NCBI GenBank assembly: GCA_964348825.1 | Contig: CAYGDX010000001.1 | Coordinates: 90,909-154,908 of the forward strand | Reading direction: 5' to 3' | DNA: 64,000 bases | Source: an uncultured Gammaproteobacteria bacterium | Lineage (GTDB): Bacteria; Patescibacteriota; Patescibacteriia; Veblenbacterales; UBA10138 | Translations under genes and position numbers: made by a program | Notes under the pieces: model-generated | Told to the model about the DNA's origin: nothing | The model's input: only the letters and a program-made list of their open reading frames with translations | Databases searched by the model: none | Part shown: positions 4,188 through 38,680 of the stretch, one piece after another | How the letters are laid out: each line of letters opens with the position of its first letter | Numbering within the stretch: position 1 is the stretch's first letter

Positions 4188-4356
4188 CAAAAGTTTCAAT
4201 GACCAAGTTTAAAGTTCAAATAAATATTCAAAAGTTTCTAAAATTTTAAAATGTTGGAACTTTATTGGAACTTGGAAATTTGAACTTGGGATTTAAACAA
4301 TTTAGACATTTTTAGAAATTAGAGCTTAGAAATTAGTCATTTTTAATCTTTATTTT

Positions 4357-5646: not shown

Positions 5647-5840
5647 ATCCTAAAAAATTCCTCCCCTCAATAGGGGAGGTTAGGTGGGGTAATAAATAAA
5701 GCAGCCTGCAAAGGCTGTTTTTAAATTTCTAATCTCTAATAACTAATTTCTAAAAATGACTAAAATTTTAAAAATTAATTTATTGAAAATTGATTTAAAA
5801 TTGTAAATTTAAAATTAAACACTAAATACTACACCCTAAC

Positions 5841-13220: not shown

Positions 13221-13258
13221 ATTATCTAATTATGTCCGGCCGGACATAATTAGATAAT
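13221..13258. repeat. Perfect 38-bp palindrome attatctaattatgtccgg|ccggacataattagataat, left copy
   Basis: Identical palindrome recurs at 13820-13855, so the pair brackets ORF 13274-13816. Confidence 0.8.
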
Positions 13259-13273: not shown

Positions 13274-13816
13274 ATGTTAAAACGAACTAAAACAATTAGT
13301 CAGATCATTTTGACCGCGCTTTATGGTAGCGGTTTGGCAATGGTTGAATTTCATAATTTTATCAATGATTTTAGGCGTTGGGGTTATCATTATGAAAGCA
13401 ATCGCGAATGGCAAAATTATTTAAAATACATAAAGAACAAAAAGAAGTCGTATCGCTTATTGTATAATCTAAAAAGAAGCAAATATATTAAAATCAATAA
13501 GACAGGCGATAAGATTATAGTAAGCTTAACTAATAAGGGTAAAATGGCAGCGCTTAAAAATAGTTTATTACAAACTAAAAAGATGTCAGATAAATATACC
13601 GTAGTGATTTTTGATATTCCCGAAACAGCGCGCTTAGCCAGGGTATTATTTAGAAAACTCTTAAAAGAAGCTAGCTTTAAAAAATTACAACAAAGTGTGT
13701 GGATATCGAATTGTGACGCTCGTGATATCATGATTAAATTTATTAAAGAACAAAAAATAGATAAGTGGGTGAATGTATTTTATGCTACCAATTTGTTCAA
13801 GAAGTCGAATTTATAA
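13274..13816 (+). CDS. Hypothetical protein: N-terminal winged-helix-like region + C-terminal Cas2/VapD-like domain
   Basis: C-terminal KYTVVIFDIPETARLARVLFRKLLKEASFKKLQQSVWIS resembles the Cas2 N-terminal strand-helix-strand (xxVVxYDIxx, RRxKVxKxL, RVQxSVF). N-terminal half is basic and wHTH-like. No cas1 or CRISPR array nearby. Confidence 0.35.
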   Translation: MLKRTKTISQIILTALYGSGLAMVEFHNFINDFRRWGYHYESNREWQNYLKYIKNKKKSYRLLYNLKRSKYIKINKTGDKIIVSLTNKGKMAALKNSLLQTKKMSDKYTVVIFDIPETARLARVLFRKLLKEASFKKLQQSVWISNCDARDIMIKFIKEQKIDKWVNVFYATNLFKKSNL

Positions 13817-13819: not shown

Positions 13820-13855
13820 TTATCTAATTATGTCCGGCCGGACATAATTAGATAA
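13820..13855. repeat. Perfect 36-bp palindrome ttatctaattatgtccgg|ccggacataattagataa, right copy
   Basis: Starts 4 bp after the stop codon of the 13274-13816 ORF; identical to the copy at 13221-13258. Confidence 0.8.
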
Positions 13856-14024
13856 TAGTTAATTTTTTGATTTAAGTTGTTTTGGTTAAATATTGTGGAG
13901 TTATTGGTAGATATTAGTAAATTAATATGTATTCTATATAGCATATGTATAGAAGTTTGTTTTTAGATTGTTTAATTATGTAATTATTGTCGTGATTGGG
14001 AAAAAATGTTATAATTAATTTGAT

Positions 14025-15674: not shown

Positions 15675-15759
15675 GGTTTTACTTTAGTAATTAATGTATT
15701 AATGGTATAATAAATTGAGAATGACTGATTTTTCAAAAATCCGAAATTTATTTATTAAA

Positions 15760-15838
15760 CACTAGAACATTTAAACATTAGAACATTATTAATAAAAAAC
15801 TTTTTGTTCTTATGATCTAGTGATCTAATGTTCTAGTG
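15760..15838. repeat. Palindromic cactagaac / gttctaatgtt element (family D)
   Basis: cactagaacatttaaacattagaac...gttcttatgatctagtgatctaatgttctagtg. Related copies at 17944-18030, 21878-21912, 22270-22307, 27845-27925, 34888-34975, 43570-43632, 58048-58100, in both orientations. Confidence 0.65.
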
Positions 15839-15860
15839 ATAATTCCTTACTTCAACCATC

Positions 15861-17935: not shown

Positions 17936-18055
17936 GAGTTTTTCACTAGAACATTAGATCACTAGATCATAAGAACAAAAAGTTTTTTATTAATAATGTT
18001 CTAATGTTTAAATGTTCTAGTGTTCTAATGAATAAGATTTAGAATTTTAATTACT

Positions 18056-18655
18056 ATGCCTCCAGTTAAATCAAAAAATCAAGTAAGCAAATGGGAGCGT
18101 GCTTTGGAAAAATATTTTCTGTGGCTGGCGCTTGGTTTGTCGATATTAATTATTATTTTAGGGGTGTGGTTTTTGTGGCGTCCGGTTTATAATGAGTGGC
18201 AAGGCGGAGTAGATTTAAATAAAGAAAGAAATGAATTACAAGTGGCGCGAGCACGCTTCGAGGTTTTAAAAAAATTATTTACTGATTGGGAAAATCTAAA
18301 GGTGAAACCTGCGGGGCGTGATTTGCCTTTGATTTTACCAAGTGAGGCCGAGGTGCCTAATTTATTGGTTCAGCTTGAAGCCATAGCGCGCGATACTGGT
18401 TTTAAATTACAAGGTATTGCGGTGAGTGAAGCGAGTGGTAAGGGAACATCTCGTAAAGGTGAATCAGGTGCTACTACAATTTCCGGTGCGCGACCAATTA
18501 AAATCACACTTAGTTTAGATGGCGCTACGTACCCCAAAGTTAAAACATTGCTTAAGGCCTTGGATCAGGCTTGGCGTTTAATTCAGGTAGATAGTTTTAC
18601 GGTGGGGCGCGATAGTGCTTTGAGTTTAGAATTAACTGCTTATTATTTCCCTTAA
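18056..18655 (+). CDS. pilO: PilO-like type IV pilus assembly protein
   Basis: Single N-terminal TM (FLWLALGLSILIIILGVWFLW), coiled-coil plus C-terminal alpha/beta region. Synteny pilM-N-O. Confidence 0.5.
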   Translation: MPPVKSKNQVSKWERALEKYFLWLALGLSILIIILGVWFLWRPVYNEWQGGVDLNKERNELQVARARFEVLKKLFTDWENLKVKPAGRDLPLILPSEAEVPNLLVQLEAIARDTGFKLQGIAVSEASGKGTSRKGESGATTISGARPIKITLSLDGATYPKVKTLLKALDQAWRLIQVDSFTVGRDSALSLELTAYYFP

Positions 18656-18658
18656 ATT

Positions 18659-19000
18659 ATGTTAGTAGCTAAAAGTTTGCCAATTGGAAAAACCTTAACT
18701 ATGATTAGTGTGGTAGTTGTAGCGTTAGGTACAATTTTGTATTTGGTGTATACTAATTTTATAGATACTTCATCGGCACCGGTAAGTGATACACCAGTAA
18801 CTACTGGTGTATCAACACTTGAAATTAGCGCGGCTGAGGCCAAGTTTAAATTACCTAGTGGACAAGTTTTGGATAAAAATTTCTTTACCCTGCCGGCAGT
18901 TGAGGAATTATTTAATTTTGGTGATTTGCCAGTAACTGCTACACCTGTGAAGCGAGATGATCCTTTCGCCCCCTTGCCAAGTACAAATAAACGGCGGTAA
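18659..19000 (+). CDS. Hypothetical membrane protein (possible PilP analogue)
   Basis: 113 aa with N-terminal TM. Position after pilO. No sequence motif recognised. Confidence 0.3.
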   Translation: MLVAKSLPIGKTLTMISVVVVALGTILYLVYTNFIDTSSAPVSDTPVTTGVSTLEISAAEAKFKLPSGQVLDKNFFTLPAVEELFNFGDLPVTATPVKRDDPFAPLPSTNKRR

Positions 19001-19047
19001 AATAGAAATAGTTTAAAAATAACTTTTTAATTAAATAAATAAAATTT

Positions 19048-19599
19048 ATGAGTATGCGTTTTTCTAAAATAAATGGCTTTACCCTCGTAGAGCTTTTAGT
19101 CGTAATTGCCATTATTGGTATTTTGTCATCACTTTCAGTGGTGTCGTTAAACTCTGCTCGTGGCCGCGCGCGCGATGCTCAACGTTATAATGATTTAAGG
19201 CAATTATTTACCGCGATGACGCTTTATTATGATACTCAAGTATCTACTCCGCAATATCCCAGTATGAGCGGTTCTGAAGAGGATAAATGGACTAGTGATA
19301 ATGATACTGCGAGTTGGTGGAATGGTATAGCAGGGCCTAATAGATTTTTCCCTACAGTTTTGAAAGATCCTGGGATTGGCAATACATCTGCTTATTCGTA
19401 TGCTGTGCAAGCCGAAACAAGTGCTGGTAAGGGGGATCTGCGACAACATTATTGTGTTTATACAAAATTAGAAGGCGCAGATAATTATTTAATTGTAACC
19501 GAGAGTGGTTTAAAATCTAAAGAGGGAACCCCCGAATTTACAGATAATTCAACAGTTTGCGATTGTACACCAGGTTTATGTGCAGAAGCTGGTTCGTAA
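19048..19599 (+). CDS. Type IV pilin (class III signal peptide, N-methylation motif)
   Basis: NGFTLVELLVVIAIIGIL...ARDAQRYNDLRQ prepilin leader and conserved N-terminal helix. C-terminal Cys pair. Confidence 0.8.
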   Translation: MSMRFSKINGFTLVELLVVIAIIGILSSLSVVSLNSARGRARDAQRYNDLRQLFTAMTLYYDTQVSTPQYPSMSGSEEDKWTSDNDTASWWNGIAGPNRFFPTVLKDPGIGNTSAYSYAVQAETSAGKGDLRQHYCVYTKLEGADNYLIVTESGLKSKEGTPEFTDNSTVCDCTPGLCAEAGS

Positions 19600-19641
19600 T
19601 TTTTTAGAATTTTGATATTAGGATTTAGAATTTAATTCAGT

Positions 19642-20052
19642 ATGCCCAAAAAGCAACCCAGTGGCATAATTCTTCTTATAGTAATAGTTGGGGTGGCGGT
19701 TTTATTGGCCGCCACTTTTGTTTTAATTACTGTCGGACGTAAACAGAATTTGACCAAACGTGAGGCAATTCGTTTAGAAAACTTACGCTTGATTTCTCAA
19801 GCGCAGGAATTTTATTTTGACCGCTTCCAAAAATATGGCTCGTTTGAGGAGTTGATTAAGGCTCGTTTATTAGATGAAATTCCGCGTGACAACAAGAATG
19901 AAAAAGGTTATAATTTATATCGCAGTACTAAAGAGGATGAGTGGTGTGTGTGGTTAGAAATGGAGCAGCAAAATCCGCCGTATTTAAGCCTTGGCTCGCA
20001 CGGTCAAAAAAAATTAATAATACCGCCGATTGATTTAGAAACATGTAAGTAA
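19642..20052 (+). CDS. Pilin-like protein lacking canonical prepilin cleavage motif
   Basis: N-terminal TM plus KREAIRLENLRLISQAQEFYF, resembling the pilin N-terminal helix region. No G-F-T-L-[IV]-E motif. Confidence 0.3.
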   Translation: MPKKQPSGIILLIVIVGVAVLLAATFVLITVGRKQNLTKREAIRLENLRLISQAQEFYFDRFQKYGSFEELIKARLLDEIPRDNKNEKGYNLYRSTKEDEWCVWLEMEQQNPPYLSLGSHGQKKLIIPPIDLETCK

Positions 20053-20119
20053 AATCCGAATATCGAAATCAGAAATACAAAAACTTTGAACTATTGACTA
20101 ATAACTTTGAACTTAGTGT

Positions 20120-21874
20120 ATGGCTGACGAAGCAATCATGGCAAAATCAGGTAACACCGGTGATATTGGTGATTTTTTAGTTACCCAAAATATTTTAACC
20201 GTGGCGCGTTTAGCTGAATATAGAAAAATTGCACAAGCTGAACAGCGAGGCATTGAGGAAGTTTTAATGGAGCGTGCGGCGCTTACCCCTGAAGCACTAC
20301 TTAAAGCTAAAAGTGCTTTTTATGGATTACCAGCAGTTGATTTAACCCAACAAGCCGTGACTGAAATGGTGCTACGCTTAGTGCCACTTGAACTCGCCCA
20401 ATACTATCAATTAGTACCTTTCCGGCGTGACAACAACGACGTGTGGATTGCTTTGGTACATCCAGAAAATTATAAATCAATGGAAGCAGTTGATGTTTTA
20501 GGACGTCAGCACGGCTGGAAACCAAAATATGCGATTACCACTTCCACTTCGTTACTTAAAGTGCTTCGTCAATATAGTTCGCTTACTTCCGAAGTCGGTG
20601 AGGCCTTAAAAATGGCGGAAGATGACGATCAATCAGCCCTAAGGCAAGATGAAAATGTACAAGAATTTGAAGAAGTTTTAAAAGCCGCACCGGTGGCGAA
20701 AATGGTGGCCTCAATTCTCCGGCACGCGGTAGAAGGTGGTGCTTCGGATATTCATATTGAACCAGGCGATGCCGATAGTCGCGTGCGTTTTCGAGTTGAC
20801 GGCATTCTTCGTACCTCACTTACCTTACCGAAATATATTCACTCGGCGGTTATATCGCGTATTAAAGTACTAGCTAATTTAAAAATCGATGAAACCCGAC
20901 AACCGCAAGATGGTCGTATTCGTTTACGAGTGGTGGATAAAGTAATTGATTTTCGTATTTCCACTATGCCAGTAATTGGTAATGAAAAAGTGGTGATGCG
21001 TATTTTGGATCCAACGACCGGCGTGCGTACTTTTGAGGGTTTGGGTTTTACTGGTCAAAAATTACGCATCCTAAAAGAAGCAATTCAAAAACCGCATGGC
21101 ATGTTCTTAGTTACTGGGCCAACGGGTAGTGGTAAAACAACCACGCTTTACGCCGTGCTCAATATTTTAAATCGCGAAGAAGTAAATATTATTACACTAG
21201 AAGATCCAGTGGAATATTTTATGGGTGGTGTGAACCAATCGCAAGTGAACCCGGAAGTGGGTTATACTTTTGCCAATGGTCTTAGATCAATTCTTCGGCA
21301 AGACCCCGATATTATTATGGTTGGTGAAATTCGTGACTCGGAAACTGCGGAGCTTGCGATTCATGCTTCGCTCACTGGTCACATACTACTTTCAACTCTC
21401 CACACCAATGATGCGCCGGCCGCAATTTTGCGTTTAACCGATATGCACATTGAACCGTTTTTAATTGCCTCCACTGTGAATGTAATAATTGGTCAACGTT
21501 TGGTCAGAAAATTATGTGAAAGTTGCCGCAAACCCAGCACTCTGCCGCCAGAAATGCTTAAGAAAATTCAAGAATCGTTTGCTGGAATGGGCGCGGGAGC
21601 GAAAGAAGAAGTTCCAGCTGAACCGTGGACAACTTATGAAGCGGGTTCCTGCTCACACTGTGAAAATTCTGGTTACAGGGGTCGGGTGGCGATTACAGAA
21701 ATACTAGCCAATACGCCGGAATTGCAAAAAATAATTGCCGATGGCGCCAAGCCCCACGAACTAAAAGCTGAATTTGTACGCCAAGGTAGTACTAGTTTGA
21801 TGCAAGATGGATATTTGAAAGTGCTTACAGGTATGACATCGCTCGAGGAAGTGCTCACTGCGGCGCAGGACTAA
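20120..21874 (+). CDS. pilB: Type IV pilus assembly (extension) ATPase PilB / GspE family
   Basis: Walker A GPTGSGKTT, Walker B DPDIIMVGEIRD, His box GHILLSTLHTNDA, tetracysteine CESC...CSHC. 584 aa with N-terminal GspE-N domain. Confidence 0.9.
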   Translation: MADEAIMAKSGNTGDIGDFLVTQNILTVARLAEYRKIAQAEQRGIEEVLMERAALTPEALLKAKSAFYGLPAVDLTQQAVTEMVLRLVPLELAQYYQLVPFRRDNNDVWIALVHPENYKSMEAVDVLGRQHGWKPKYAITTSTSLLKVLRQYSSLTSEVGEALKMAEDDDQSALRQDENVQEFEEVLKAAPVAKMVASILRHAVEGGASDIHIEPGDADSRVRFRVDGILRTSLTLPKYIHSAVISRIKVLANLKIDETRQPQDGRIRLRVVDKVIDFRISTMPVIGNEKVVMRILDPTTGVRTFEGLGFTGQKLRILKEAIQKPHGMFLVTGPTGSGKTTTLYAVLNILNREEVNIITLEDPVEYFMGGVNQSQVNPEVGYTFANGLRSILRQDPDIIMVGEIRDSETAELAIHASLTGHILLSTLHTNDAPAAILRLTDMHIEPFLIASTVNVIIGQRLVRKLCESCRKPSTLPPEMLKKIQESFAGMGAGAKEEVPAEPWTTYEAGSCSHCENSGYRGRVAITEILANTPELQKIIADGAKPHELKAEFVRQGSTSLMQDGYLKVLTGMTSLEEVLTAAQD

Positions 21875-21912
21875 ATAATCATAATAACATTAGATCACTA
21901 GAACATTAGAAC

Positions 21913-22272
21913 ATGAGTCAAGAATTCAGAGAGCAGTTAAAAAAGAAAATGGACGAATATGTAAAATTAGTTTATCGCGTGACTAAAAATTATCCCCGCG
22001 ACGAGTTATATGGAGTAACTTCACAATTAAGAAGATCAACCCTATCCGTGATATTAAATTATTTAGAGGGTTATGCCAGGCGCCGAATTCCAACTTGCTA
22101 TCATTTTTGGGAAATATCTTATGGTTCGTTACAAGAAAGTAGATATTTATTAGATTTATCATTAAATGAAAATTATTTATTAATTGAAAATCACAAAACA
22201 TTAAGTGTTTTAGCTGATGAAATTAGTGCTATGCTCTGGCAATCCTTGAAGAATTTAGAAAAATACAAATAG
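21913..22272 (+). CDS. Four-helix-bundle protein (23S rRNA intervening-sequence protein family)
   Basis: SQLRRSTLSVILNYLEGYARRR matches the 'four helix bundle protein' family signature. Bracketed on both sides by family D repeats. Confidence 0.7.
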   Translation: MSQEFREQLKKKMDEYVKLVYRVTKNYPRDELYGVTSQLRRSTLSVILNYLEGYARRRIPTCYHFWEISYGSLQESRYLLDLSLNENYLLIENHKTLSVLADEISAMLWQSLKNLEKYK

Positions 22273-22307
22273 TTAATGTTTAAGTGTTCTAATGTTTTAA
22301 TGTTCAA

Positions 22308-23390
22308 GTGTTTATGTCCACCACCGACTCCTTAACCATCAATCGCTTGCTCACTGAAGCCGCAGAAAGGCAGGTATCTGACCTTCATTTTACTGTTGGT
22401 GCAAATCCAGCCGCGAGGCGTGACGGCAAGCTTGAAACATTAAACGCCGAGCCACCCGTCACCGAAGAATTTATGAAAGGGTTGGTCGAATTTTTTATTC
22501 CGGAGAATAAGAGAGCTCGTTTTGCCAGCGCGCAAACTTTAACCTTAACTTATAATTTTGGCACACGCGCTCGTTTTCGGGTGCACGGAAGCTACCAAAA
22601 GGGTTATCCAGCTTTAGATTTACATTATGTACCATGGCAAGCGCCCGACGTTACAACTATGGGTTTGCCTAAAATTTTACTTAATTCTATAAAAGAAAAA
22701 GAGGGATTGATTCTTTTGAGTGGTTTGCAGGGGTCAGGCCGTAGTGCTACGCTCGCGGCGCTACTTGATAATATTAATCATACACAAGCTAAACATATTG
22801 TAACGATTGAAGATCCAGTGGAGTATTTACTGACCAACGATAAATCATTTATCAAACAAAAAGATGTCGGTGATGATATTCCAAGTGTGGAAGATGCTTT
22901 GGGTGGCCTTAAAGATGAAGATGTAGATGTGCTAGCGATTGATGTACCGCTTAATATGGCGGCTTGGCGCGAAATTTTTACACGGGCGCGGAGCGGCACT
23001 TTAGTTTTTGTGGCGATGGAAGCCGATACTTCAGTGCGGGCGCTAGAATCACTTATTTTAAGTTGGCCGGGTGCTGAAGCTGATAGTTTAAAACAATTAT
23101 TAAGCGAAACACTTCTCATTGCTACTTCACAGCGCTTAGTGCCACGCGTTGGCGGTGGTAAGGTAATGGTAGTAGAATGTTTACTTGGTAATACGCCGGT
23201 TAAATCATTAATTCGCGATGGTAAGATTTTACAACTCCAAAATGTACTGGAATTATCGCGTGAAGATGGTATGGTGTCACTCGAAAAAAGATTGTCTGAT
23301 TTAGTAAAAACTGGAGAAATTACACAAGAAGATGCAGTAGCTCACGCTGTGAACAAAGAGGTGATTGGGTCGATGTTGCGGGTGAAGTAA
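22308..23390 (+). CDS. pilT: PilT-like retraction-ATPase homolog with degenerate catalytic motifs
   Basis: PilT-length GspE-family core. Walker A is GLQGSGRSAT (Lys to Arg, Pro to Gln). Walker B region DEDVDVLAIDVP lacks the catalytic Glu. His-box GTLVFVAMEA lacks the His. Confidence 0.7.
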   Translation: MFMSTTDSLTINRLLTEAAERQVSDLHFTVGANPAARRDGKLETLNAEPPVTEEFMKGLVEFFIPENKRARFASAQTLTLTYNFGTRARFRVHGSYQKGYPALDLHYVPWQAPDVTTMGLPKILLNSIKEKEGLILLSGLQGSGRSATLAALLDNINHTQAKHIVTIEDPVEYLLTNDKSFIKQKDVGDDIPSVEDALGGLKDEDVDVLAIDVPLNMAAWREIFTRARSGTLVFVAMEADTSVRALESLILSWPGAEADSLKQLLSETLLIATSQRLVPRVGGGKVMVVECLLGNTPVKSLIRDGKILQLQNVLELSREDGMVSLEKRLSDLVKTGEITQEDAVAHAVNKEVIGSMLRVK

Positions 23391-23641
23391 TTTTTAGGGT
23401 GTAGCGTGTAGGGTGTAGTTCGTCATTGCGAGCTTCAGCGAAGCAATCCCTAGTAAATCCCCAAATCCCAATCCCTAAGATTGAATTTTAAATTATAAAT
23501 TTTAAGTCAATTTTTAATTAAAACATTTAGTTTTTGATTAAAAACCCGTAAAGGTCTCGTGGAGACCCACGCGTTTCTTTACGAGATTTAAAATTAAAAA
23601 TTTAGTTATTTTTAGAAATTAGATATTAGAAATTTTCGTTC

Positions 23642-24850
23642 ATGTCCTTATTCTCCTACGAAGCCAAAGATCTCGAAGGCCGTGCCTTAAAAGGCATGGT
23701 TGATGCGGCATCGCATGCCGCTGCCGTGGAAATTTTAACCGACAAAGGCCTTACCCCAATTACAGTCGAAGAAAAAAAGGTGAGTCGTTTGCAATTTTTA
23801 TTTGGCAATCAAATTTCGCGCATTAAGATCAAAGATATTGTAGTATTGTCGCGTCAGCTTTCGGTGATGGCTTCTGCCACTGTACCAATTGTGCAAGCAC
23901 TTAGAATTTTAGAAAAACAAACCGCCAATCCTAAACTTAAAGTAATAATTTCCGAAATTGCCGATGAAGTAGAAGGTGGTGCCAAATTTTCCTCTACGCT
24001 GGCCAAATATCCCGATGTGTTTTCCGACTTTTATATCAATATGGTGGCGAGCGGTGAAACCTCAGGTAAGCTCGATGAAGTGCTGAATTATTTAGCAGAT
24101 GAACAAGAAAAAAATTACGATATGATTAGTAAAATTCGCGGGGCGATGATTTATCCGGCTTTTATTTTGGGTGGGTTACTTTTAGTTGGCGCGGTGATGA
24201 TGATTTTCGTGGTGCCGAAACTCACTTCAATTTTAGTGGAATCAGGCGTGGCCCTGCCACTTTCTACACGAATCCTAATTGGCTTTAGTAATTTTTTAAG
24301 AAATTTTTGGTGGTTATTTTTAATAATGCTGGTGGGCGGGGGAATTGGTTTTCGTTATGGTGTAAAAACTCCAAAAGGAAGGCACTTGTGGCATTTAATT
24401 CAGCTTAAAATTCCGGTGGTTGGCACAATTTATCAAAATATTTATTTAGTGCGCTTTACTCGTTCAATGTACACGCTAATTGTTGGTGGTGTGCCTTTAA
24501 CTCGCAGTTTAGCCATCGTTTCCGATGTGGTGGGTAATGCTGTATTTAAACAAATTATTGATGAAACAATTAAAGAGGTAGAAGATGGCAATTCCATTGC
24601 CACTGTGTTTTCACAAACCAAAGTAATTCCTTCAATGGTATCACAAATGATGATTGTGGGTGAAAAAACTGGGCGACTCGAGGAAGTATTTAAACGTTTA
24701 TCCGACTTTTATACTCGCGAAGCTAATAATTTAGTGGCCAATTTAGTAACCTTGCTTGAGCCAATGGTGATGCTTGTAATGGGTGTATCAGTGGGGTTTA
24801 TGGTTTCGGCGATACTGTTGCCTATGTATAGGTTGTCCTCCGGCGCTTAG
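23642..24850 (+). CDS. pilC: Type IV pilus inner-membrane platform protein PilC (GspF family)
   Basis: 402 aa, two GspF-type repeats with three TM segments. Typical PilC topology and motifs. Confidence 0.85.
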   Translation: MSLFSYEAKDLEGRALKGMVDAASHAAAVEILTDKGLTPITVEEKKVSRLQFLFGNQISRIKIKDIVVLSRQLSVMASATVPIVQALRILEKQTANPKLKVIISEIADEVEGGAKFSSTLAKYPDVFSDFYINMVASGETSGKLDEVLNYLADEQEKNYDMISKIRGAMIYPAFILGGLLLVGAVMMIFVVPKLTSILVESGVALPLSTRILIGFSNFLRNFWWLFLIMLVGGGIGFRYGVKTPKGRHLWHLIQLKIPVVGTIYQNIYLVRFTRSMYTLIVGGVPLTRSLAIVSDVVGNAVFKQIIDETIKEVEDGNSIATVFSQTKVIPSMVSQMMIVGEKTGRLEEVFKRLSDFYTREANNLVANLVTLLEPMVMLVMGVSVGFMVSAILLPMYRLSSGA

Positions 24851-24894
24851 AGTAAAATCCTAAATCCTAAACCCTAAATTCTAAACAATATCAA

Positions 24895-25263
24895 ATGACA
24901 GAAAATCAAAATTCAAAACAGTATAATTTAGAAGATAGGACACTTTGTTTTGCTAAAGAAATTGGTATTTATGTTAATAAATTGCCGTTTACAGTGCCTA
25001 ATAAGGAATACGGTAAGCAGTTAGTGCGTTCCGCGAGTTCGGTAGGCGCAAATTATCTTGAAGCTAATGAAGCATTAAGCAAAAAAGATTTTTTAATGCG
25101 GATTAAAATTTCTCGTAAAGAAGCTAAAGAAACTCGCTTTTGGCTACAATTAACCGAGCCATTACCAGAAATGAATAGCGCTAGAGATAAATTTATTCAA
25201 GAAATTACTGAATTAATGAAGATTTTTGGAGCAATTATAGAAAAATCTAAACCTAATGTTTAA
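24895..25263 (+). CDS. Four-helix-bundle protein (second copy)
   Basis: VRSASSVGANYLEANEALSKKDFLMRIKISRKEAKETRFWLQL matches the same family as 21913-22272. Confidence 0.7.
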   Translation: MTENQNSKQYNLEDRTLCFAKEIGIYVNKLPFTVPNKEYGKQLVRSASSVGANYLEANEALSKKDFLMRIKISRKEAKETRFWLQLTEPLPEMNSARDKFIQEITELMKIFGAIIEKSKPNV

Positions 25264-25382
25264 TGTTTTATAATTTTGGATTTGTTTAGTATTTAGATAT
25301 TAGAATTTAGGATTTAAATAAAACGCCATTGTGTACTTATTTGCCTAGTGTTATAATTATATCGTCAAATAGAATATTATAA

Positions 25383-25922
25383 ATGAAAGGGGGTGAGACA
25401 ATGAACATTCGTAAAGGCTTTACGTTGATAGAATTATTGGTGGTGATTGCCATCATAGGCGTCTTGTCCACCCTAGCGGTGGTGTCGTTTCAAGGGGCAA
25501 GAGGAAAGGCAAGAGATGCTCAACGTTTAAGTGCGGTAAAAGCTCTTCAACAAGGCTTGGAATTTTATTATAATGATAATGATAGTAGTTATCCTCTAGC
25601 GCATACCACTGCTATTAAATTATCTAATGATACTGCTAAGACGAATTGTCTTGACAGTAATGGATTTAAGGATGGAAGTACAACAACACCATGTGTGGAT
25701 CCTATATATTTAAAGACCATAAATGATGATCCATCACCAGGAGTTTTGTGGTATTATCTGAGTAATGGAAGTGATACTATACCAGCAACTAAATATGCTA
25801 TAGCTGTTAAGATGGAAGGCAATACTAATCCATATAAAGTGGGGTGGAATTGTATGCTTAATGATGGATCCTTAGGTGTAGTAACAGAAACTAATGATGT
25901 GCCAGCTTGTACAATACCATAA
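25383..25922 (+). CDS. Type IV pilin (major pilin candidate)
   Basis: KGFTLIELLVVIAIIGVLSTLAVVSFQGARGKARDAQR prepilin leader/helix. Own rho-independent terminator downstream. Confidence 0.8.
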   Translation: MKGGETMNIRKGFTLIELLVVIAIIGVLSTLAVVSFQGARGKARDAQRLSAVKALQQGLEFYYNDNDSSYPLAHTTAIKLSNDTAKTNCLDSNGFKDGSTTTPCVDPIYLKTINDDPSPGVLWYYLSNGSDTIPATKYAIAVKMEGNTNPYKVGWNCMLNDGSLGVVTETNDVPACTIP

Positions 25923-25940
25923 TAATTTTTAAAACATTTA

Positions 25941-25979
25941 ACCCTCTTCCGTCCACACGGGGGAGGGTTTTTGTTTTTA
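25941..25979 (+). terminator. Rho-independent terminator after pilin gene
   Basis: aaccctc-ttccgtccacacgggg-gagggtt followed by tttttgttttt. Confidence 0.65.
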
Positions 25980-26274
25980 TGGTATGATTAGTGATAGATT
26001 GGGTGTTAATGAGCAGTTGTCATTGCGAGTGAGTCATCAGACGAGCGACGATTTGTCCGCCGTAGCTTTAGCGAAGGTGGAAGCAATCTATCAAAATCAC
26101 TAATAACTAATTCCTAATTTCTAAAAATTCCCAAGACCCAAATCCCAAAATTTAGACATTAGTCATTAGATATTTTTAGAAATTAGATATTAGACATTAG
26201 AAATTTATTTTTTAGAGATTGCCACGCCCTCGCTCTTTTCGCTCGGGCTCGCAATGACATAACACTCTTACTCT

Positions 26275-27102
26275 ATGCTCTTACTAATCTTCATCTTCGG
26301 CCTCTGTCTCGGCAGTTTTTTAAACGTCCTCATTCTCCGCCTAAAAGACGACAAGTCAATTCTCGGTCGTTCGCAGTGTCCAAAGTGTTTAAGGCAACTT
26401 AAATGGTTTGAAAATATTCCACTACTTTCTTTTATTTTTTTACGCGCGAAATGTGCTTCGTGTAATCAACCAATCTCTTGGCAATATCCTTTAGTAGAAT
26501 TTACGAGCGGGGTTTTGTGGGTTACATCCTACTTTGTCATTGCGAGCCAAGCGAAGCAATCCCTCGTTTTAGCAACAGAGATTGCCACGTCGTCCGCTTC
26601 GAGCGTCCTCCTCGCAATGACACAAAACGATTGGCTGGCTATGTTTACTTTTGGTGTATTCGTAACCATTTTACTCATTCTTTTTGTTTTTGACTTTCGT
26701 TGGTACATTTTACCTGATCAAATTACCATTCCTGCCATCGTTATCACCATAATTTTACAATTACTACTCGGCGTTTCCATTATTAATTTACTTATCGCAG
26801 GATTATCTGGTGCGGCTTGGTTTGGCGCGCAATATTTTGTATCAAAAGGTAAATGGGTGGGTGATGGTGATATTCGCCTTGGCGCTTTAATTGGTTTAAT
26901 GCTTGGCACTTGGCAGTTACTTTTAACCACTTTTTTTATCGCTTATATTGGTGGCGCCATTATTGCCGTTATTTTATTGTTACTAGGCAAAGTAAAACGT
27001 GGGGCGAAACTGCCAATGGGAGCGTTTTTGACAACAGCAACGATAATTGGGCTGATGTATGGTAAAATAATATGGGAATGGTATATAGGATTAATATGGT
27101 GA
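26275..27102 (+). CDS. pilD: Prepilin peptidase PilD (A24 family) carrying an in-frame repeat insertion
   Basis: N-terminal CxxC-x21-CxxC zinc domain (CPKC...CASC), A24 core with GDGDIRLG Asp motif. Residues VIASQAKQSLVLATEIATSSASSVLLAMTQN are encoded by a family A repeat. Confidence 0.8.
   Translation: MLLLIFIFGLCLGSFLNVLILRLKDDKSILGRSQCPKCLRQLKWFENIPLLSFIFLRAKCASCNQPISWQYPLVEFTSGVLWVTSYFVIASQAKQSLVLATEIATSSASSVLLAMTQNDWLAMFTFGVFVTILLILFVFDFRWYILPDQITIPAIVITIILQLLLGVSIINLLIAGLSGAAWFGAQYFVSKGKWVGDGDIRLGALIGLMLGTWQLLLTTFFIAYIGGAIIAVILLLLGKVKRGAKLPMGAFLTTATIIGLMYGKIIWEWYIGLIW
26535..26622. repeat. Family A repeat (tgtcattgcgag..agcaatc..ctcgcaatgaca) inserted in-frame within pilD
   Basis: Same inverted-repeat module as intergenic copies (e.g. 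4146-4185, 53824-53929). Reading frame of pilD is uninterrupted. Confidence 0.75.
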
Positions 27103-27242
27103 TTGAATCACTAATCACTAATTCCTAATATCTAAAAATCACCAAGATCCAAACCTCAATCCCAAAATTTAGTCATTAGACATTAGTCATTTTTAGAAAT
27201 TAGAGATTAGTTATTAGACATTATATAAGTTAGTACATAATC

Positions 27243-27842
27243 ATGTTTAGTTTAAATTGTCAAAAACATAGCGCTGGATTCACTTTGTTAGAGCTAACTA
27301 TATCCATTGGCATTTTTATGATGATTGGCGGAATGGTAATGGTGAATTTTCGTGCTGGGCAATATTCTGATGAACTTCAAGCCGGTGCCAAAGCAGTGGA
27401 GAATGCCGTACGTGAAGCCCAAGCCGCGGCCATTGGCGGGCAGGAGGTGTGTGTTAATGCTGATAGCAGTAAATTCGCACCCTTAGGTGGATTTGGATTG
27501 AATATCGCGGCTGATAATACTGCACTGTGGTTTGGGGATTGTGATTATGGAACTGATTCTGATAATGATCCACCACGTAATTATGTATATAGTCCTGACC
27601 CTAATATTGATGTGATTGTGCAAAATATTGATTTGGGATCTAATATTAAGATAAATACAAAAACTCCAGCAGATGGCGATATAATGAATTTAGTTTTTAG
27701 TTCTGGCAGTGAGGTTGCTAAAATAAATGGTAGTAATCCAACCACAGTAAATCAGGTAGTAGTAACTTTAGAACACAAAAAAACAGCGAAGAGAAAAACA
27801 GTAGTAATTAATTTATTAAGCGGGCAAGTGTTTATTGAGTGA
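27243..27842 (+). CDS. Minor pilin / pseudopilin (GspH/FimT-like)
   Basis: SAGFTLLELTISIGIFMMIGGMV prepilin-type N-terminus. Confidence 0.6.
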   Translation: MFSLNCQKHSAGFTLLELTISIGIFMMIGGMVMVNFRAGQYSDELQAGAKAVENAVREAQAAAIGGQEVCVNADSSKFAPLGGFGLNIAADNTALWFGDCDYGTDSDNDPPRNYVYSPDPNIDVIVQNIDLGSNIKINTKTPADGDIMNLVFSSGSEVAKINGSNPTTVNQVVVTLEHKKTAKRKTVVINLLSGQVFIE

Positions 27843-27962
27843 TGATTTTTATTAGAACATTAAATCATTAGAACATAAAAACAAAATTGATAAAATGTTT
27901 CAGTGTTCTAGTGTTTTAATGAATATACTTCGGATTTAAAAACAACTAGTAGGTATTTTATT

Positions 27963-28664
27963 ATGTATAATTCTAAGAACCATCCTTCCGGCCAAGGTCT
28001 TCTCGAGGCGACTCTCGCCATCGGCATTATTATGGTGGGTCTTGGGGCTCTTATGGCTATGACTTTGCAAAGTACCCAAGCCACTACAGTAAGTAGTCAG
28101 CAATTAGTGGGGCAGAATTTAGCGCGTGAGGCTATTGAAGTGGCGCGTAATATTCGGGATAGTAATTGGTTGGCGATTGGTAACAGCGCACCAACCGGTG
28201 TGACGTGGGATAAGGATTTAGTGCCAACTGGTAATAATCAAGCGGCAGTAATTGTTTTTTTACCGCCGGATGCTGGTGCTGCAACTTTTGAAATTAAATT
28301 TATTACCTTTGTTGGCGCTAACGCTTCATCACGAAAAGAGGAGGACATTGATGCTTTGGATGAACCAAAAATACATATGTATCGCGGTACAGTCGGTGAA
28401 GGTTATTTATGGCGACAGAGTGACGTAGGGTTGGGCGCAAATTATACAGATACTAATTTTCGTCGCATTTTAGCTCTTGATCCGGTTTGTCAGCCCGAGA
28501 CGGGTGACGCTTATGTTAATGTCGCTAAAGCAGATTGTAATGGGACTGATACTAAAATCGGCATCCGAGCCGAAGCGCGCGTTTCCTGGCCTCGTAGCGG
28601 ACTTTTGGGCGGTTCGGGTAGAAGTAGCGTGAGTATGGTGGAGTACTTATATAACTGGAAATAG
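27963..28664 (+). CDS. Minor pilin-like protein (PilV/PilW-like)
   Basis: GQGLLEATLAIGIIMVGLGALMAM hydrophobic N-terminal helix with a G-x-x-L-E prepilin-like motif. Confidence 0.5.
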   Translation: MYNSKNHPSGQGLLEATLAIGIIMVGLGALMAMTLQSTQATTVSSQQLVGQNLAREAIEVARNIRDSNWLAIGNSAPTGVTWDKDLVPTGNNQAAVIVFLPPDAGAATFEIKFITFVGANASSRKEEDIDALDEPKIHMYRGTVGEGYLWRQSDVGLGANYTDTNFRRILALDPVCQPETGDAYVNVAKADCNGTDTKIGIRAEARVSWPRSGLLGGSGRSSVSMVEYLYNWK

Positions 28665-28839
28665 TTTAACGAGTAAGTATTATTGTCATTCTGAGCCACA
28701 GTGAAGAATCTTTAAATTTTGAAAATTTCCAATGACCAAGTTCCAATTTCCAATAAATTTTCAATGATTTAAAATTTTCAAACATTGGAACTTTATTGGG
28801 ATTTTGAACTTTGAACTTGGGATTTAAACAACTTAGATT

Positions 28840-29424
28840 ATGCTTCATCTAAATCACAAAAAATATAGCACTGGATTTACTCTAATGGAAATCGTCATAG
28901 TTCTCGCTCTATTTGCTCTTGCCAGCATATTGATTGCCGGGATTTTTGTGAATATGCAAACTACTCAGCGGCGGGTACGGGATAATCAGGAATTAATTAC
29001 CGATGCGCGTTATCTATTAGAAGTAATCGCGCGTGAAGTGCGCTCGGATTTTATTGATTATAGTGGATTAGTGAGTGGCAAATTATCATTAAAATCGGCC
29101 AGTGGAGTTGATATAGTAATAGAGCATAAAACAGGAGATGGTTGTACAGCACCTGCAAAATGTGTCGTTGATATTAGTCGTGATGGAAATGCCGCTCAAT
29201 TGAATTCTAAAAATTTAGCAGTTGAACATTTGCAATTTTACGTTTCACCATTAACTGACCCGTTTCCCACAGGTACTCCCGGTGTAATCCAAACCACACC
29301 CGATCAACAACCAAGAGTCACAATTGTCCTAAAAGTTAGCAATGAGCCAAAAAAACCTCGTGCCGCTGAACGCAAGGCAATTTATTTACAAACCACTGTT
29401 TCGGCGAGAGCGTATGTTAGATAA
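28840..29424 (+). CDS. Minor pilin / pseudopilin
   Basis: STGFTLMEIVIVLALFALASILIAGIF prepilin N-terminus. Confidence 0.6.
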   Translation: MLHLNHKKYSTGFTLMEIVIVLALFALASILIAGIFVNMQTTQRRVRDNQELITDARYLLEVIAREVRSDFIDYSGLVSGKLSLKSASGVDIVIEHKTGDGCTAPAKCVVDISRDGNAAQLNSKNLAVEHLQFYVSPLTDPFPTGTPGVIQTTPDQQPRVTIVLKVSNEPKKPRAAERKAIYLQTTVSARAYVR

Positions 29425-29562
29425 TTTAAAAATAAAAAATCAAAATGCAAAATGACAGATTAAAATTTAAAATAAATTATAACTTACTAATATCTAAAGA
29501 AAAATTACTACCCAATAATTTTTTCATTTTACATTGTCATTTTTATTTTTGATTTTTACATT

Positions 29563-30429
29563 TTGATTTATAAGATGTTCAAATTTTCAATTTTCAATTC
29601 CAATACTTTTTTTCCTCGCGGTAATGTACTTTTACTCGCCCTCCTTATGCTTGCCGGAGGTATGGTGGGCACTTTGGCTTTGACCTCAATTGTTACCAGC
29701 CAACTTCGCCAGTCGCGCGTGATTGATGCGGGTATGATTGCGCACTACGAAGCCGAATCGGCTTTGGAAGAAGGTTTGTATAGTGCTCGTAAATTAGAAG
29801 AGATTGATATTGCAAGCGCTCCAGATTGTTCAGCTAATGCAACAACTGGTGATTTGGGTTGTACTACAGTAAATTTTAGGCAGGAATTTGCGGGATCAGC
29901 GGATGTTTTGGTGTCATCTCTAAAAACCGACGAAACATTTGAATTAGATGTTAGTGAATCATCAATTATTGGTTTGACTTTAGAATGGTATCCAGCTCAC
30001 GATTATAATTTTGGACCACAATTAGCTATTACTTATGTTAATAATGAAAATGGTGTACCAACAATAACTCGCCCGGTGAATGGAGTATCTGGAGCGCCAT
30101 TCAATTGTGTTTCTAGTGACCCAGATACAATTTGTGAAAATCCATCATCCGCCTTAGACTTAGAAAATAATACCGAAAAAGTTCGTTTTCGTGCTCTATC
30201 TCCACAAAGTGTGGCAGCGTTAGATGGTGGTGATATAAAAAATTTAAAAATTAGACCAGTTTGTTTGGCGGGTGTTAGCCCATGTGTATTTAATAAGTAT
30301 GTTAAATTAAAAACCCGTGGTAAAAAAGGTGATGTGGGTTATACTGTGCAAGTTAGCATACCTACTTCCGTACCAGCTTATGGTATTGCTGATTATGTAT
30401 TATTCTCGGAGCAGGAAGTTAAGAAGTGA
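29563..30429 (+). CDS. PilX-like minor pilin
   Basis: RGNVLLLALLMLAGGMVGTLALTSIVTSQLRQS resembles the PilX N-terminal domain. Confidence 0.4.
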   Translation: MIYKMFKFSIFNSNTFFPRGNVLLLALLMLAGGMVGTLALTSIVTSQLRQSRVIDAGMIAHYEAESALEEGLYSARKLEEIDIASAPDCSANATTGDLGCTTVNFRQEFAGSADVLVSSLKTDETFELDVSESSIIGLTLEWYPAHDYNFGPQLAITYVNNENGVPTITRPVNGVSGAPFNCVSSDPDTICENPSSALDLENNTEKVRFRALSPQSVAALDGGDIKNLKIRPVCLAGVSPCVFNKYVKLKTRGKKGDVGYTVQVSIPTSVPAYGIADYVLFSEQEVKK

Positions 30430-30430
30430 A

Positions 30431-32671
<2,241 letters not shown>

Positions 32672-32682
32672 GTTAAGATAAG

Positions 32683-32841
32683 TGTGTCATTCCCGTGAAT
32701 CCGCCATCCGTCAACTGGTCGGAGGCGGAGGGAATCCAGAGACAAGTTGTTTCGAACCTAGAAGCTAGAATATAGAATCTAGATAAGTGCAGTCCAAATT
32801 ATAACTTCTAACTTTTATATTCTAAATTCTGGACACTTTGG
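32683..32841. repeat. Composite repeat, second copy flanking ligA
   Basis: gtgtcattcccgtgaatccgccatccgtcaactggtcggaggcggagggaatcc ... ctagaagctagaatatagaatctagataagtgcag ... ggacactttgg; matches 30431-30659. Confidence 0.65.
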
Positions 32842-32877
32842 ATTTCATTTTTTCACTTTTTACGCTACAATATCTCT

Positions 32878-33165
32878 ATGTCAGTTGAACAAATTAATGT
32901 GGAAAAACTCGCTCATTTAGCGCGGTTAGAGCTAAATACAAAGGAAAAAAGTACTCTGACGGATGACCTGCAGAGTATTTTGCAGTATGTGGCGCGGGTG
33001 CAGGAAGTTAAGGTTAAAGGTAAGTCACAAGCGGCAGGAGTAAATTATGAGCAAACCACGCGGGCCGATGAAGTAAAAACATGGGGCGAGGGTAGTGAAT
33101 TAGTTAAACAAGCACCCGAGAATGAAAATAATATGGTAGTAGTGCCGGGGGTGTTTGGGGAGTAG
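32878..33165 (+). CDS. gatC: Glutamyl/aspartyl-tRNA amidotransferase subunit C
   Basis: 95 aa; VEKLAHLARLELNTKEKSTLTDDLQSILQYV typical GatC. Confidence 0.75.
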   Translation: MSVEQINVEKLAHLARLELNTKEKSTLTDDLQSILQYVARVQEVKVKGKSQAAGVNYEQTTRADEVKTWGEGSELVKQAPENENNMVVVPGVFGE

Positions 33166-33392
33166 TTAAGTAAGAGTAAGAGCTTAGAGCTGTGCCCCGT
33201 ACTGTTTCCACTGAAGTGGAATCTAGTACGTGGGTAAGAGTGGCTTGCCCCGCGTAGTTTTAACGAAGTGGGGTCATTCCCGCGGAGGCGGGAATCCAGG
33301 AACAAAAAATCCTAAATAAATCTAAAATCTTAAATTCAAAATTTTTAAACATTTAGTTATTTGGATTTGATTTGACATTTAGATTTTGAAAT

Positions 33393-34877: not shown

Positions 34878-34997
34878 ATCTTATTCATTGGAAAACTAGA
34901 ACATTTAAACATTAGAACATTTTAATAAAAAACTTTTTGTTCTTATGTTCTAGTGATTTAATGTTCTAGTGAAAATTATTACTCTTACTAAATAACC

Positions 34998-35570: not shown

Positions 35571-35793
35571 ATTTAAAATCCTAAATCCGAATATCTAAAT
35601 CCTAAATAAATCCCAATGATTAAAAGCCAAAATTGAATTTTAAATTATAGATTTTAAATCAATTTTTAATGACTTAATTTTAAAACATTTAAATATTTAT
35701 TAATTTAATCATTGAATAAAAATTTAAAATTAAAAATTTTAGTTATTTTTTAGAAATTAGATATTAGAGATTAGAAATTTTGAAAATTGCTTT

Positions 35794-36534: not shown

Positions 36535-36590
36535 GAGTTTTTTAAAAATCCGAAATTCGAATATCTAAATCCTAAATAAATTCCAAAAGT

Positions 36591-36760
36591 CGTGCGGCCT
36601 CGTCGTAGGGTTTGTACAGAGCGCAAGGCAAACGAGCGTCCGGTTCGGGCGTGCTGTGGTAGTTGTGCATAGCCCGAACCAGCTCGTTTGGCGAGCACTG
36701 TTCAAACCCGAAGACACAGGCCGCGATTCTTGGTTACTTCTATTAAAGAAGTAACAAAAT
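36591..36760 (+). repeat. Structured about-170-nt element (family C), forward orientation; possible small ncRNA or cruciform-forming MITE
   Basis: Long stem caaacgagcgtccggttcgggc...gcccgaaccagctcgtttg plus terminal hairpin ggttacttct-attaa-agaagtaacc. Related copies at 37667-37853 (reverse), 39899-40170 (with about 100-nt hairpin insertion), 52622-52850 (diverged). Confidence 0.5.
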
Positions 36761-36855
36761 AAATCATTAATTAAATTTTAGAAATTTTGTTATATTTATT
36801 TCCCATGTTATACTTAAAATACTTTATTTAACCATTTATTATTTTTTATTACATT

Positions 36856-38476: not shown

Positions 38477-38680
38477 GTGGTAGCATGTAGCTTGTAGTGG
38501 TTGTCATTGCGAGAAGCGAGTTAAACGAGCGACAAAGCAATCACTTAAAATCACTAATAACTAATTCCTAATATCTAATAATGACTAATGACTAAAATAA
38601 AAAAATTAGACATTCGTCCGCCAGCTGGCGGATTGGGATTTTTTAGAAATTAGATATTAGAGATTAGTCATTCTAAAATA

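Follow-up and report, generated by a model that had tools for sequence, protein, structure and literature searches.

The spacer between pilT and pilC, in a 64,000-nt stretch of the genome of an uncultured Patescibacteria (Candidate Phyla Radiation, CPR) bacterium (contig CAYGDX010000001.1, positions 90,909 to 154,908; hereafter, the window), ends in an AT-rich motif that lies immediately before the start codon of pilC. A first examination of the letters alone (hereafter, the sequence-only reading) had flagged the interval 23450-23641 as a dispersed repeat with a promoter for the joint regulation of pilus and envelope genes, which raises the question of whether this motif is a promoter or some other kind of element. 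It is likely, in our view, that the motif is part of a dispersed palindromic element built of heptamer arrays, of the kind of the short tandemly repeated repetitive (STRR) sequences and of the intervening sequences (IVS) of 23S rRNA genes, and not a promoter. From their sequence and distribution, these elements are probably mobile.

The repeat itself exists where the sequence-only reading had placed it. Searching the window with TTAGAAATTAGATATTAGARATT and allowing up to three mismatches yielded 16 matches, versus 0.00 expected from shuffles, and Tandem Repeats Finder (TRF) resolved the motif into a tandem array of a 7-nt unit, (TTAGNNA)3-4. There are 12 such arrays of at least three units in the window, seven on the plus strand and five on the minus strand. 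None of them is contained within coding sequence, with one (56381-56408) overlapping the 3′ end of a gene, and none appeared in shuffled intergenic sequence. The seven plus-strand arrays end 9–102 nt 5′ of start codons. A distance of no more than 40 nt to the ATG, claimed for six genes, was correct for five of them, with 9–22 nt in htrA (array 4312-4339, 17 nt), pilC (23612-23632, 9 nt), the pseudopilin gene at 27243 (27193-27220, 22 nt), dsbA-1 (35750-35777, 16 nt) and lgt (38643-38670, 10 nt), but not for pilD, whose array ends 71 nt from the ATG. Pfam comparisons agreed with the gene names proposed, identifying an HtrA-like protease, PilB, a PilT-like ATPase, PilC, PilD, pseudopilins, two DsbA-like proteins and Lgt. 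The block TTTTTAGAAATTAG...TTAGA.ATTAG does not vary among seven aligned copies. A longer repeat was also claimed, and found, upstream of pilC and dsbA-1: the pilC module and positions 35598-35772 have 193 nt in common at 70% identity (family A modules). Conversely, the idea of a unique module with its own preceding sequence holds only in part, because that sequence (cactaataactaattcctaat...) is present at three of the six sites (26097, 27108 and 38551) and is the same heptamer array reverse-complemented. Indeed, since the A-rich and T-rich arrays fold as hairpins, the flagged motif is the 3′ arm of an imperfect palindrome, and the reverse-complement heptamer array that had been noted as cactaataactaattcc... 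is its 5′ arm.

Arrays of this type pervade the spacers of the window, in both orientations, in agreement with the notion of a dispersed repeat. Fifty-two of the 64 arrays with a period of 7 or 8 are in the intergenic 17.5% of the window, being ca. 20-fold denser in intergenic than in coding DNA, and at least one occurs in 31 of the 47 spacers that are no shorter than 35 nt. The arrays of a spacer are mostly arranged as inverted pairs, which fold as long hairpins. TRF retrieved 51 rows of period 7 with many different consensus units; in addition to TTAGNNA, we found the unit families AAATCCT/TTTAGGA, AGGGTGT, TTGGAAC/TTTGAAC, GAATCTA and AATGTCA, as well as the octamer AACATTAG/CTAATGTT. The usual spacer is laid out as a stop codon, an A-rich array, a loop, a complementary T-rich array, some 7–20 nt and a start codon, with a loop that is either short or contains nested GC-rich mini-hairpins or an open reading frame (ORF) of the PF05635 family. 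When 31 spacers were folded and compared with dinucleotide shuffles, the A-rich and T-rich arrays paired with each other, and most spacers adopted a single long imperfect hairpin with z values of ca. −2 to −8, a few showing no excess of stability. The three complete TTAGNNA hairpins (26092-26208, 27105-27224 and 38546-38672; family B) reached z values of −5.4 to −8.0. Rfam searches, over the whole window at the gathering threshold and over 23300-27300 and 36400-40500 in E-value mode, did not retrieve any family covering the elements, the sole match on them being a sub-threshold plant miRNA precursor on the hairpin 27106-27222. Likewise, intrinsic terminators predicted in 20000-39999 numbered 21, versus 18.2 expected, and none of them was at the arrays.

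Close relatives of these hairpins are found inside the rRNA genes of other organisms. Among the contigs and loci that we compared with the window (designated with L-numbers, such as L001, L003 or L107), five contain the pattern inside the span of an rRNA gene matching the large subunit (LSU) model (L103, L107, L109, L150 and L152), and four of these five genes contain group I introns. A further contig, L157, which was left out of the LSU-model scan, has the same flanking sequence as L109, and L098 contains an array in the 16S-23S spacer. In L107 the element fills the loop of a helix at LSU model positions 573-600, which from the flanking sequence we take to be helix 25, a classic IVS site. This insertion and the hairpin upstream of pilD are alignable over their whole length, with 93 of 120 columns identical (78%) and a score of 59, versus 11.4 ± 1.9 for shuffles; the TTAGNNA copies of the window, however, lie between protein-coding genes and not in rRNA. 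The association with PF05635, the family of the “23S rRNA IVS protein”, is also shared. Approximately 14 of the 17 PF05635-like ORFs in the compared loci are bracketed by inverted heptamer or octamer arms, and L098 contains two of them, with flanking inverted heptamer arms, within the coordinates of its 23S gene; a domain scan indicated that PF05635 overlaps the bAvd family. In Coxiella, the IVS contains terminal inverted repeats and tandem heptamers beside the S23p ORF, is cut by RNase III at the first repeat, and varies in heptamer copy number between strains, while S23p is apparently not expressed (PMC4990558). Short non-intron insertions are common at known IVS sites in the 23S genes of CPR bacteria (PMC11270868); the survey describing them contains no word beginning with “repeat” and hence, in those terms, no genome-wide counterparts of these insertions. 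As for the 23S rRNA genes with group I introns in L150, L109 and L152, the LSU gene of the last is ca. 6.3 kb long and scores best with the archaeal LSU model, presumably from its many insertions.

Comparisons with related bacteria indicated that the elements turn over while the architecture of the spacers mostly persists. The PilC protein of the window is 96% identical to that of the metagenome-assembled genome H52-bin160_1 (L003); in a group of relatives that includes one labelled Candidatus Veblenbacteria, the identity falls to 61–74%. The window and its closest relative have 8–17 period-7 arrays per 10 kb, versus ca. 0.5–1.5 for most of the distant Patescibacteria. In the relatives, the pilT-pilC spacer nearly always contains a loop between an A-rich array and a T-rich one, the latter ending near the start codon, with different units (TTTCGGA in L003, TTTAGAA in L004, TTTTAAA in L005 and TTAGNNA in L009), and it is reduced to only 7 nt in L013 and 6 nt in L014. 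Although L003 is syntenic with the window, with aligned gene segments that are 78–93% identical, every aligned spacer differs between them in its repeat family, including those upstream of pilC, pilD and the pseudopilin gene. In L003, pilD and the pseudopilin gene are preceded by hairpins of the TAGAATCTAGAAG type, whereas a TTAGNNA hairpin precedes gatC and a family A module precedes the ortholog of gene 29563. At the strain level, the only other contigs found with this pilC were L001 and L002, two Logan contigs assembled from different sequencing runs. Over 7.3 kb (18018-25301) they share 100% identity with the window, and no copy-number variation was seen in this comparison. Both stop at window position 25301, within the heptamer array 3′ of a PF05635 ORF, which suggests that heptamer repeats break short-read assemblies.

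Copies of the motif are also present in many metagenome sequences. An exact-pattern scan of metagenome contigs for TTTTTAGAAATTAGNNNTTAGANATTAG matched at least 120 contigs. For the first 80 listed, GC content ranges from 31% to 62%, and none of the copies is inside an ORF of 90 or more amino acids on either strand. Among the matches listed, 100 non-redundant copies could be evaluated with respect to their neighbours: 24 are followed by a start codon on the same strand, 0–20 nt after the array (44 nt in one case), 28 abut the stop codon of a convergent ORF, mostly at −4 to +12 nt, 43 do neither and five are ambiguous.

Could the motif nevertheless be a sigma-70-type promoter, with TTAGAA as the −35 and TAGAAAT as the −10 box, which would be dispersed by a repeat and give short-leader or leaderless transcripts of a set of pilus and envelope genes? 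Several observations would fit: the seven plus-strand arrays end shortly before start codons, the sequence is AT-rich and contains −10-like hexamers, the genes originally listed are all envelope or pilus genes, and a Shine-Dalgarno-like 4-mer precedes only nine of 54 genes, so that short leaders are conceivable. However, the TTAGAA-N16-TAGAAAT pair that was proposed as a general feature occurs at only two of the six listed sites (26176 and 35750), and a third copy (5725-5753, minus strand) has no gene start downstream. TTAGAA matches three of the six positions of TTGACA, and the T expected at position 6 of a −10 hexamer is missing from TAGAAA. In a lenient scan of the region 20000-39999 for TTGACA/TATAAT, with at least 9 of 12 matches, sigma-70-like sites were not enriched (59, versus 58.8 expected), and the arrays at 23612, 26176 and 35750 were not among them. 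Near-consensus TTGACA-17-TATAAT-like sites are separate from the arrays and, in three cases (3775-3803, 56544-56572 and 58112-58139), are located between an array and a start codon; others stand alone (40175-40203, with 12 of 12 positions matching, and 53970-53998). Orientation is equally unfavourable: the five minus-strand arrays have no gene start on the same strand within kilobases, four of them beginning just after, or overlapping, the stop of a plus-strand gene and the fifth (5726-5753) lying behind the stop of gene 5841-6449. The motif is thus as common away from gene starts as it is near them, both in the window (no start lies ahead of five of the 12 arrays) and in the metagenome copies listed (28 at convergent stops versus 24 at starts). 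Nor is it specific, since hairpin arrays of other families precede ligA, gatC, gatA and ileS, and the same element is found inside 23S rRNA genes. Finally, with a pilT-pilC spacer of 7 or 6 nt, L013 and L014 do not need an internal promoter there, and the arrays are not conserved at the orthologous spacers of L003, where they precede other genes, which removes the basis for a regulon. In all, consensus, orientation, conservation and specificity do not support that the repeat carries a promoter co-regulating pilus and envelope genes, a possibility that we regard as very improbable, and the motif is unfit for inferring a pilus or envelope regulon. The AT-rich array may still have weak, incidental promoter activity.

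A dispersed and probably mobile palindromic element is suggested, instead, by arrays that are found in either orientation, avoid coding sequence, have been exchanged among non-orthologous spacers of close relatives and are inside 23S genes elsewhere. Evidence of mobility also comes from comparisons of single copies. The family A copy upstream of dsbA-1 aligned with an L003 copy at a non-orthologous site with a score of 81 and a core that is ca. 85% identical; shuffles scored ca. 20, although these were run against another subject (L103). In addition, the 86-nt octamer palindrome at 15752-15845 does not show any substitution over its core with respect to the reverse complement of 17940-18032, and differs at a few positions from 34893-34972. 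The mismatches of its arms have been copied along with it, so that the duplexes of each arm with the inverted copy's partner (−56 and −47.5 kcal/mol) are far more stable than those with its own partner (ca. −26 kcal/mol). Inverted copies that keep their mismatches are the signature of copy-and-paste spread, and not of selection for pairing. With respect to function, the elements would be co-transcribed with their neighbours and would fold into long imperfect stem-loops, which, by analogy with IVS, might be cut by RNase III, a step that we put forward tentatively and consider somewhat doubtful. In that case, the flanking genes would be affected at a post-transcriptional level, through the separation of cistrons or the stabilisation of mRNA ends, or not at all.

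Several results weigh against this interpretation, or at least against a role as RNA structures. Sense and antisense folds of 22 spacers did not differ significantly (mean −41.7 versus −39.6 kcal/mol; Wilcoxon p = 0.23), and two family B copies fold far better as antisense RNA (−38.7 versus −22.6, and −35.3 versus −21.7 kcal/mol). Moreover, the TTAGNNA arms are not more complementary to their own partners than to others, as 79 of 120 permutations were equally good, which gives no indication of compensatory evolution. Solitary arrays unable to form a hairpin predominate outside this lineage, as deduced from the presence of a reverse-complement partner block within 300 nt upstream in 13 of 84 listed copies, and downstream in three of 84; these values come from a relaxed regular expression, a strict one having given an under-count of 5 in 100. 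Besides, a scan of 30 ORFs in the 64 kb of the window did not reveal any transposase or other enzyme for mobilisation, and the boundaries of the elements are too repetitive to define target-site duplications. The hairpins are real, but these results gave no sign of selection on them as RNA structures in the direction of transcription. For the family B copies at 26092-26208 and 27105-27224, we observed that the central CCCAAA/TTTAGA segments form G-U pairs on the minus strand; together with the better minus-strand folds, this indicates that family B has a preferred strand, which is here antisense to the flanking genes.

These difficulties make it pertinent to ask whether the arrays are a neutral by-product of replication slippage acting in place in AT-rich spacers, immobile and without function, with hairpins that are incidental. 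Degenerate units, arms whose variable positions do not pair, the lack of a compensatory signal and of strand asymmetry, the different units at orthologous spacers and the solitary and often perfect (TTAGAAA)n runs that predominate in other genomes would all fit slippage, as would the variable heptamer copy number of the Coxiella IVS (PMC4990558). Yet slippage in place does not account for the 78% identity over 120 nt, including a non-repeat centre, with the 23S insertion of another organism, for the ca. 85% identical core at non-orthologous sites of two genomes, for an 86-nt imperfect palindrome present without substitutions in both orientations, or for the consistent order, from stop to start, of A-rich and then T-rich arrays across families; we consequently deem it improbable. 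Much the same standing can be given to a role in translation, either as structure-poor, AU-rich leaders, in which one of the bases C and G is missing, for Shine-Dalgarno-independent initiation, or as barriers of stop codons. The latter can be read directly from the sequence, because TAG on one strand and TAA on its complement recur with a period of 7 nt, and three units place stops in all three frames. The short distance of 0–20 nt between array and start codon, seen both in the window and in the 24 metagenome copies listed, and the scarcity of Shine-Dalgarno-like motifs, point in the same direction, as do L087 and L089, in which a reversed array fills the rpsL-rpsG spacer, as read by translation, up to the ATG. 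Nevertheless, the same arrays follow stop codons in convergent spacers and are found inside rRNA genes and beside tRNA genes, and in the window the arrays pair with each other as hairpins, quite contrary to an unstructured leader; a translational function thus seems to us a poor candidate.

The heptamers might also be putative binding sites for a lineage-specific protein that organises or mobilises the elements, for instance the PF05635/Avd-like four-helix bundle encoded in some of the loops. In favour of this, the majority of PF05635-like ORFs are bracketed by inverted arms, PF05635 overlaps bAvd and the ORF just 3′ of pilC is kept in several relatives. Co-occurrence is, however, weak evidence when arrays are found in nearly every spacer, the unit sequences differ so widely among families that they are hard to fit to one specificity, and the S23p protein of Coxiella is apparently not expressed (PMC4990558), making this the most improbable of the explanations that we contemplated. 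DNA-uptake sequences, arrays of clustered regularly interspaced short palindromic repeats (CRISPR) and phase-variable repeats were set aside, because there are several degenerate unit families, located outside coding sequence and without spacers. A wider version of the mobile palindromic element can also be envisaged, in which, in some Patescibacteria, a single class of heptamer hairpins would colonise rRNA helices, as IVS, and most intercistronic spacers, would serve as operon “punctuation” through RNase III cleavage in reduced genomes that are poor in Shine-Dalgarno motifs, and would have the PF05635/Avd-like proteins encoded in some loops as maintenance or mobility factors. We regard it as unlikely; were it true, rRNA IVS would be one landing site of a genome-wide family of mobile hairpins, which would explain the origin of IVS.

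A literature search did not retrieve any description of heptamer arrays in Patescibacteria, and the elements do not fit strictly in any of the systems that they resemble. The STRR sequences of heterocystous cyanobacteria are 7-bp repeats forming intergenic hairpins, of unknown function, for which roles in transcript stability or translational coupling have been proposed (PMC2670836). The elements of the window are like them in having tandem 7-bp units, several families per genome, an intergenic location that includes spacers within operons and inverted arrays that form hairpins. They differ in their host, which belongs to the Patescibacteria, in filling the spacer from stop to start, in the homology of one family to rRNA IVS and in their units (TTAGNNA, AAATCCT, AACATTAG and others), which do not coincide with those of the cyanobacterial STRR1-3. 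We are not aware of any report of homology between STRRs and rRNA IVS. Like 23S IVS, the elements have terminal inverted repeats that pair as an extended stem, some of them with a PF05635 ORF in the loop, and they have close relatives in the 23S helix at 573-600, but the window copies are between protein-coding genes and at most spacers. In consequence, the elements are not members, in a strict sense, of either the STRRs, because the host is not a cyanobacterium, or the IVS, because the window copies are not in rRNA. Repetitive extragenic palindromes (REP), bacterial interspersed mosaic elements (BIME), REP doublets forming hairpins (REPIN; PMC3116915) and miniature inverted-repeat transposable elements (MITE) are similarly short imperfect intergenic palindromes, found in both orientations, often between co-transcribed genes, that keep mismatches among copies. 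Unlike them, the arms in the window consist of tandem 7–8-nt units, the TTAGNNA copies are only 65–85% identical and the ORFs scanned include neither a REP-associated tyrosine transposase (RAYT) nor any other transposase. Lastly, the phase-variable promoter repeats of contingency loci are also short tandem repeats just 5′ of genes for surface structures, but the elements of the window have degenerate units and are spread over most spacers, in both orientations.

The pilT-pilC spacer (23395-23641) illustrates how these elements are assembled, as it is a composite of nested parts (Table 1). Its first array is of the AGGGTGT type, which is also found behind the stop codons of four other genes (3810-4076, 29563-30429, 37877-38476 and, on the minus strand, 5841-6449). 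The 41-nt hairpin at 23545-23585 is missing from the paralogous family A copies. One of these copies (5723-5840) is in the spacer between two convergent genes, without a following gene start and ahead of a terminator-like hairpin (5717-5702). Family B hairpins can also fill a spacer: in the one between pilD and the pseudopilin gene (27105-27224), the pilD stop is separated from the 5′ arm by 6 nt, and the 3′ arm from the ATG by 22 nt. The fold of this hairpin yielded z values of −5.5 and −5.4, and that of the copy upstream of pilD (26092-26208) reached −6.3 as plus-strand RNA and −8.0 as minus-strand RNA. Of the two units with a PF05635 ORF in the loop, the one at 21880-22312 is missing in its entirety from the same spacer in L003; a PF05635 family ORF is also found just 3′ of pilC in L003, L007 and L010.

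Table 1. Position and structure of heptamer- and octamer-array elements in the window.
Feature	Position	Strand	Description
TTAGNNN array upstream of htrA	4293..4341	+	Terminal block of composite module 4077-4356; from motif matches and alignment
Family A module, reversed	5723..5840	−	Behind stop of minus-strand gene 5841-6449
86-nt imperfect palindrome	15752..15845		Octamer arms; same element class as the flagged one; from alignment
Octamer-armed hairpin	21880..22312	+	Arms AACATTAG... / ...CTAATGTT; PF05635 ORF 21913-22272 in loop (Pfam E = 5.6e-23)
AGGGTGT-type heptamer array	23395..23418	+	Left end of pilC-upstream module, directly 3′ of pilT stop; TRF period 7, 3.4 copies
GC-rich mini-palindrome	23421..23449	+	gtcattgcgag...gcaatcc, nested between two arrays; pairs internally in the spacer fold; family copies in other spacers
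C-rich heptamer array	23452..23478	+	AAATCCC/CAAATCC type; pairs partly with G-rich array 23395-23418 (fold)
AT-rich family A core	23480..23544	+	Common to dsbA-1 upstream spacer, 5611-5840 spacer (reverse complement) and L003:10316-10516; from alignment
41-nt GC-rich hairpin	23545..23585	+	Stem-loop inserted in family A core; gap in dsbA-1-upstream and L003 copies (alignment)
Terminal TTAGNNA block	23594..23636	+	TTAGTTA, then TTAGAAA TTAGATA TTAGAAA; 3′ arm; ends 9 nt before pilC ATG
Heptamer-armed hairpin	24855..25318	+	Arms AAATCCT... / ...TTTAGGA; PF05635 ORF 24895-25263 in loop (Pfam E = 2.8e-13)
Family B hairpin upstream of pilD	26092..26208		5′ arm AATCACTAATAACTAATTCCTAATTTCTAAAAAT, centre CCCAAGACCCAAATCCC/TTTAGACATTAG, 3′ arm TTTTTAGAAATTAGATATTAGACATTAGAAAT
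Family B hairpin, pilD-pseudopilin spacer	27105..27224		Fills the spacer; 82% identity over 128 nt to pilD-upstream copy
Family A module upstream of dsbA-1	35571..35793	+	Fills the spacer; 5′ AAATCCT-type array pairs with 3′ TTAGNNA array (fold)
Family B hairpin upstream of lgt	38546..38672		69% identity; z = −6.4 and −6.1; nested GC-rich hairpin 38612-38633

Three families of GC-rich mini-hairpins, with conserved stems and variable loops, are nested in or beside the AT-rich arrays: GTCATTGCGAG...GCAATC (e.g. 4150, 23421-23449, 26020, 38503 and 53825), GTCATTCCCGC...GCGGGAATCC (e.g. 30505, 32688, 33275 and 43850) and CCCCGT...ACGGGG (e.g. 4118, 12860, 30478, 33250, 39540 and 55445). They recall the small repeats embedded in the heptamer arrays of Nostoc, which Elhai et al. 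reportedly described in 2008 as GC-rich, dispersed and nested in those arrays.

The window contains other repeats and genes of interest. A GC-rich repeat of 183 nt is found upstream of dsbA-2 (36578-36760), in a spacer whose fold has a z of −8.3 and no Rfam match. A second copy, 97% identical, is split at its apex (39886-39977 and 40080-40170) by a 102-nt insert with inverted ends of its own (39978-40079), and there is a diverged inverted copy downstream of dsbA-2 (ca. 37642-37870), so that this gene is bracketed by inverted repeats. Close to the split copy, the 3′ half of a tRNA-Asp gene (39619-39696, minus strand) is duplicated at 39509-39563 with 93% identity, the AT skew changes sign at ca. 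40 kb, and the next two large ORFs (923 and 1658 amino acids; 40473-48936) do not have any Pfam match; an element may have integrated at this tRNA gene (39509-39696 / 40473-48936). A perfect 37-nt palindrome, ATTATCTAATTATGTCCGGCCGGACATAATTAGATAA, is repeated at 13221-13257 and 13820-13856, flanking an ORF (13274-13816) for a winged-helix protein with a PaaX_M/Cas2-like domain, and this pair might represent operators or delimit a small cassette. The minus strand at 11006-12649 encodes a 547-amino-acid protein with a Por_Secre_tail domain, for C-terminal sorting by type IX secretion (E = 4.3e-11), which to our knowledge would not be expected in a Patescibacteria genome. We also located a transfer-messenger RNA (tmRNA) gene (55027-55408, 72.3 bits) and a small unlisted ORF (56604-56801) that, on reading its sequence, resembles rpmI (L35), with a TTGACT-17-TATTAT site upstream (56544-56572); it is separated from rplT (57703-58050) by a gene for a product of 247 amino acids.

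Approximately 18% of this window, which comes from a streamlined CPR genome, is non-coding, and much of that DNA consists of STRR-like heptamer hairpins, with at least one hairpin family being homologous to IVS inside the 23S rRNA genes of other organisms. If this were so genome-wide, it would link dispersed intergenic palindromes, rRNA IVS and the widespread PF05635 “23S rRNA IVS protein” family, which are usually treated apart, and metatranscriptomes could then be used to test where IVS come from and whether RNase III processes them. These heptamer repeats can also mislead the motif-based prediction of promoters and regulons in CPR genomes.

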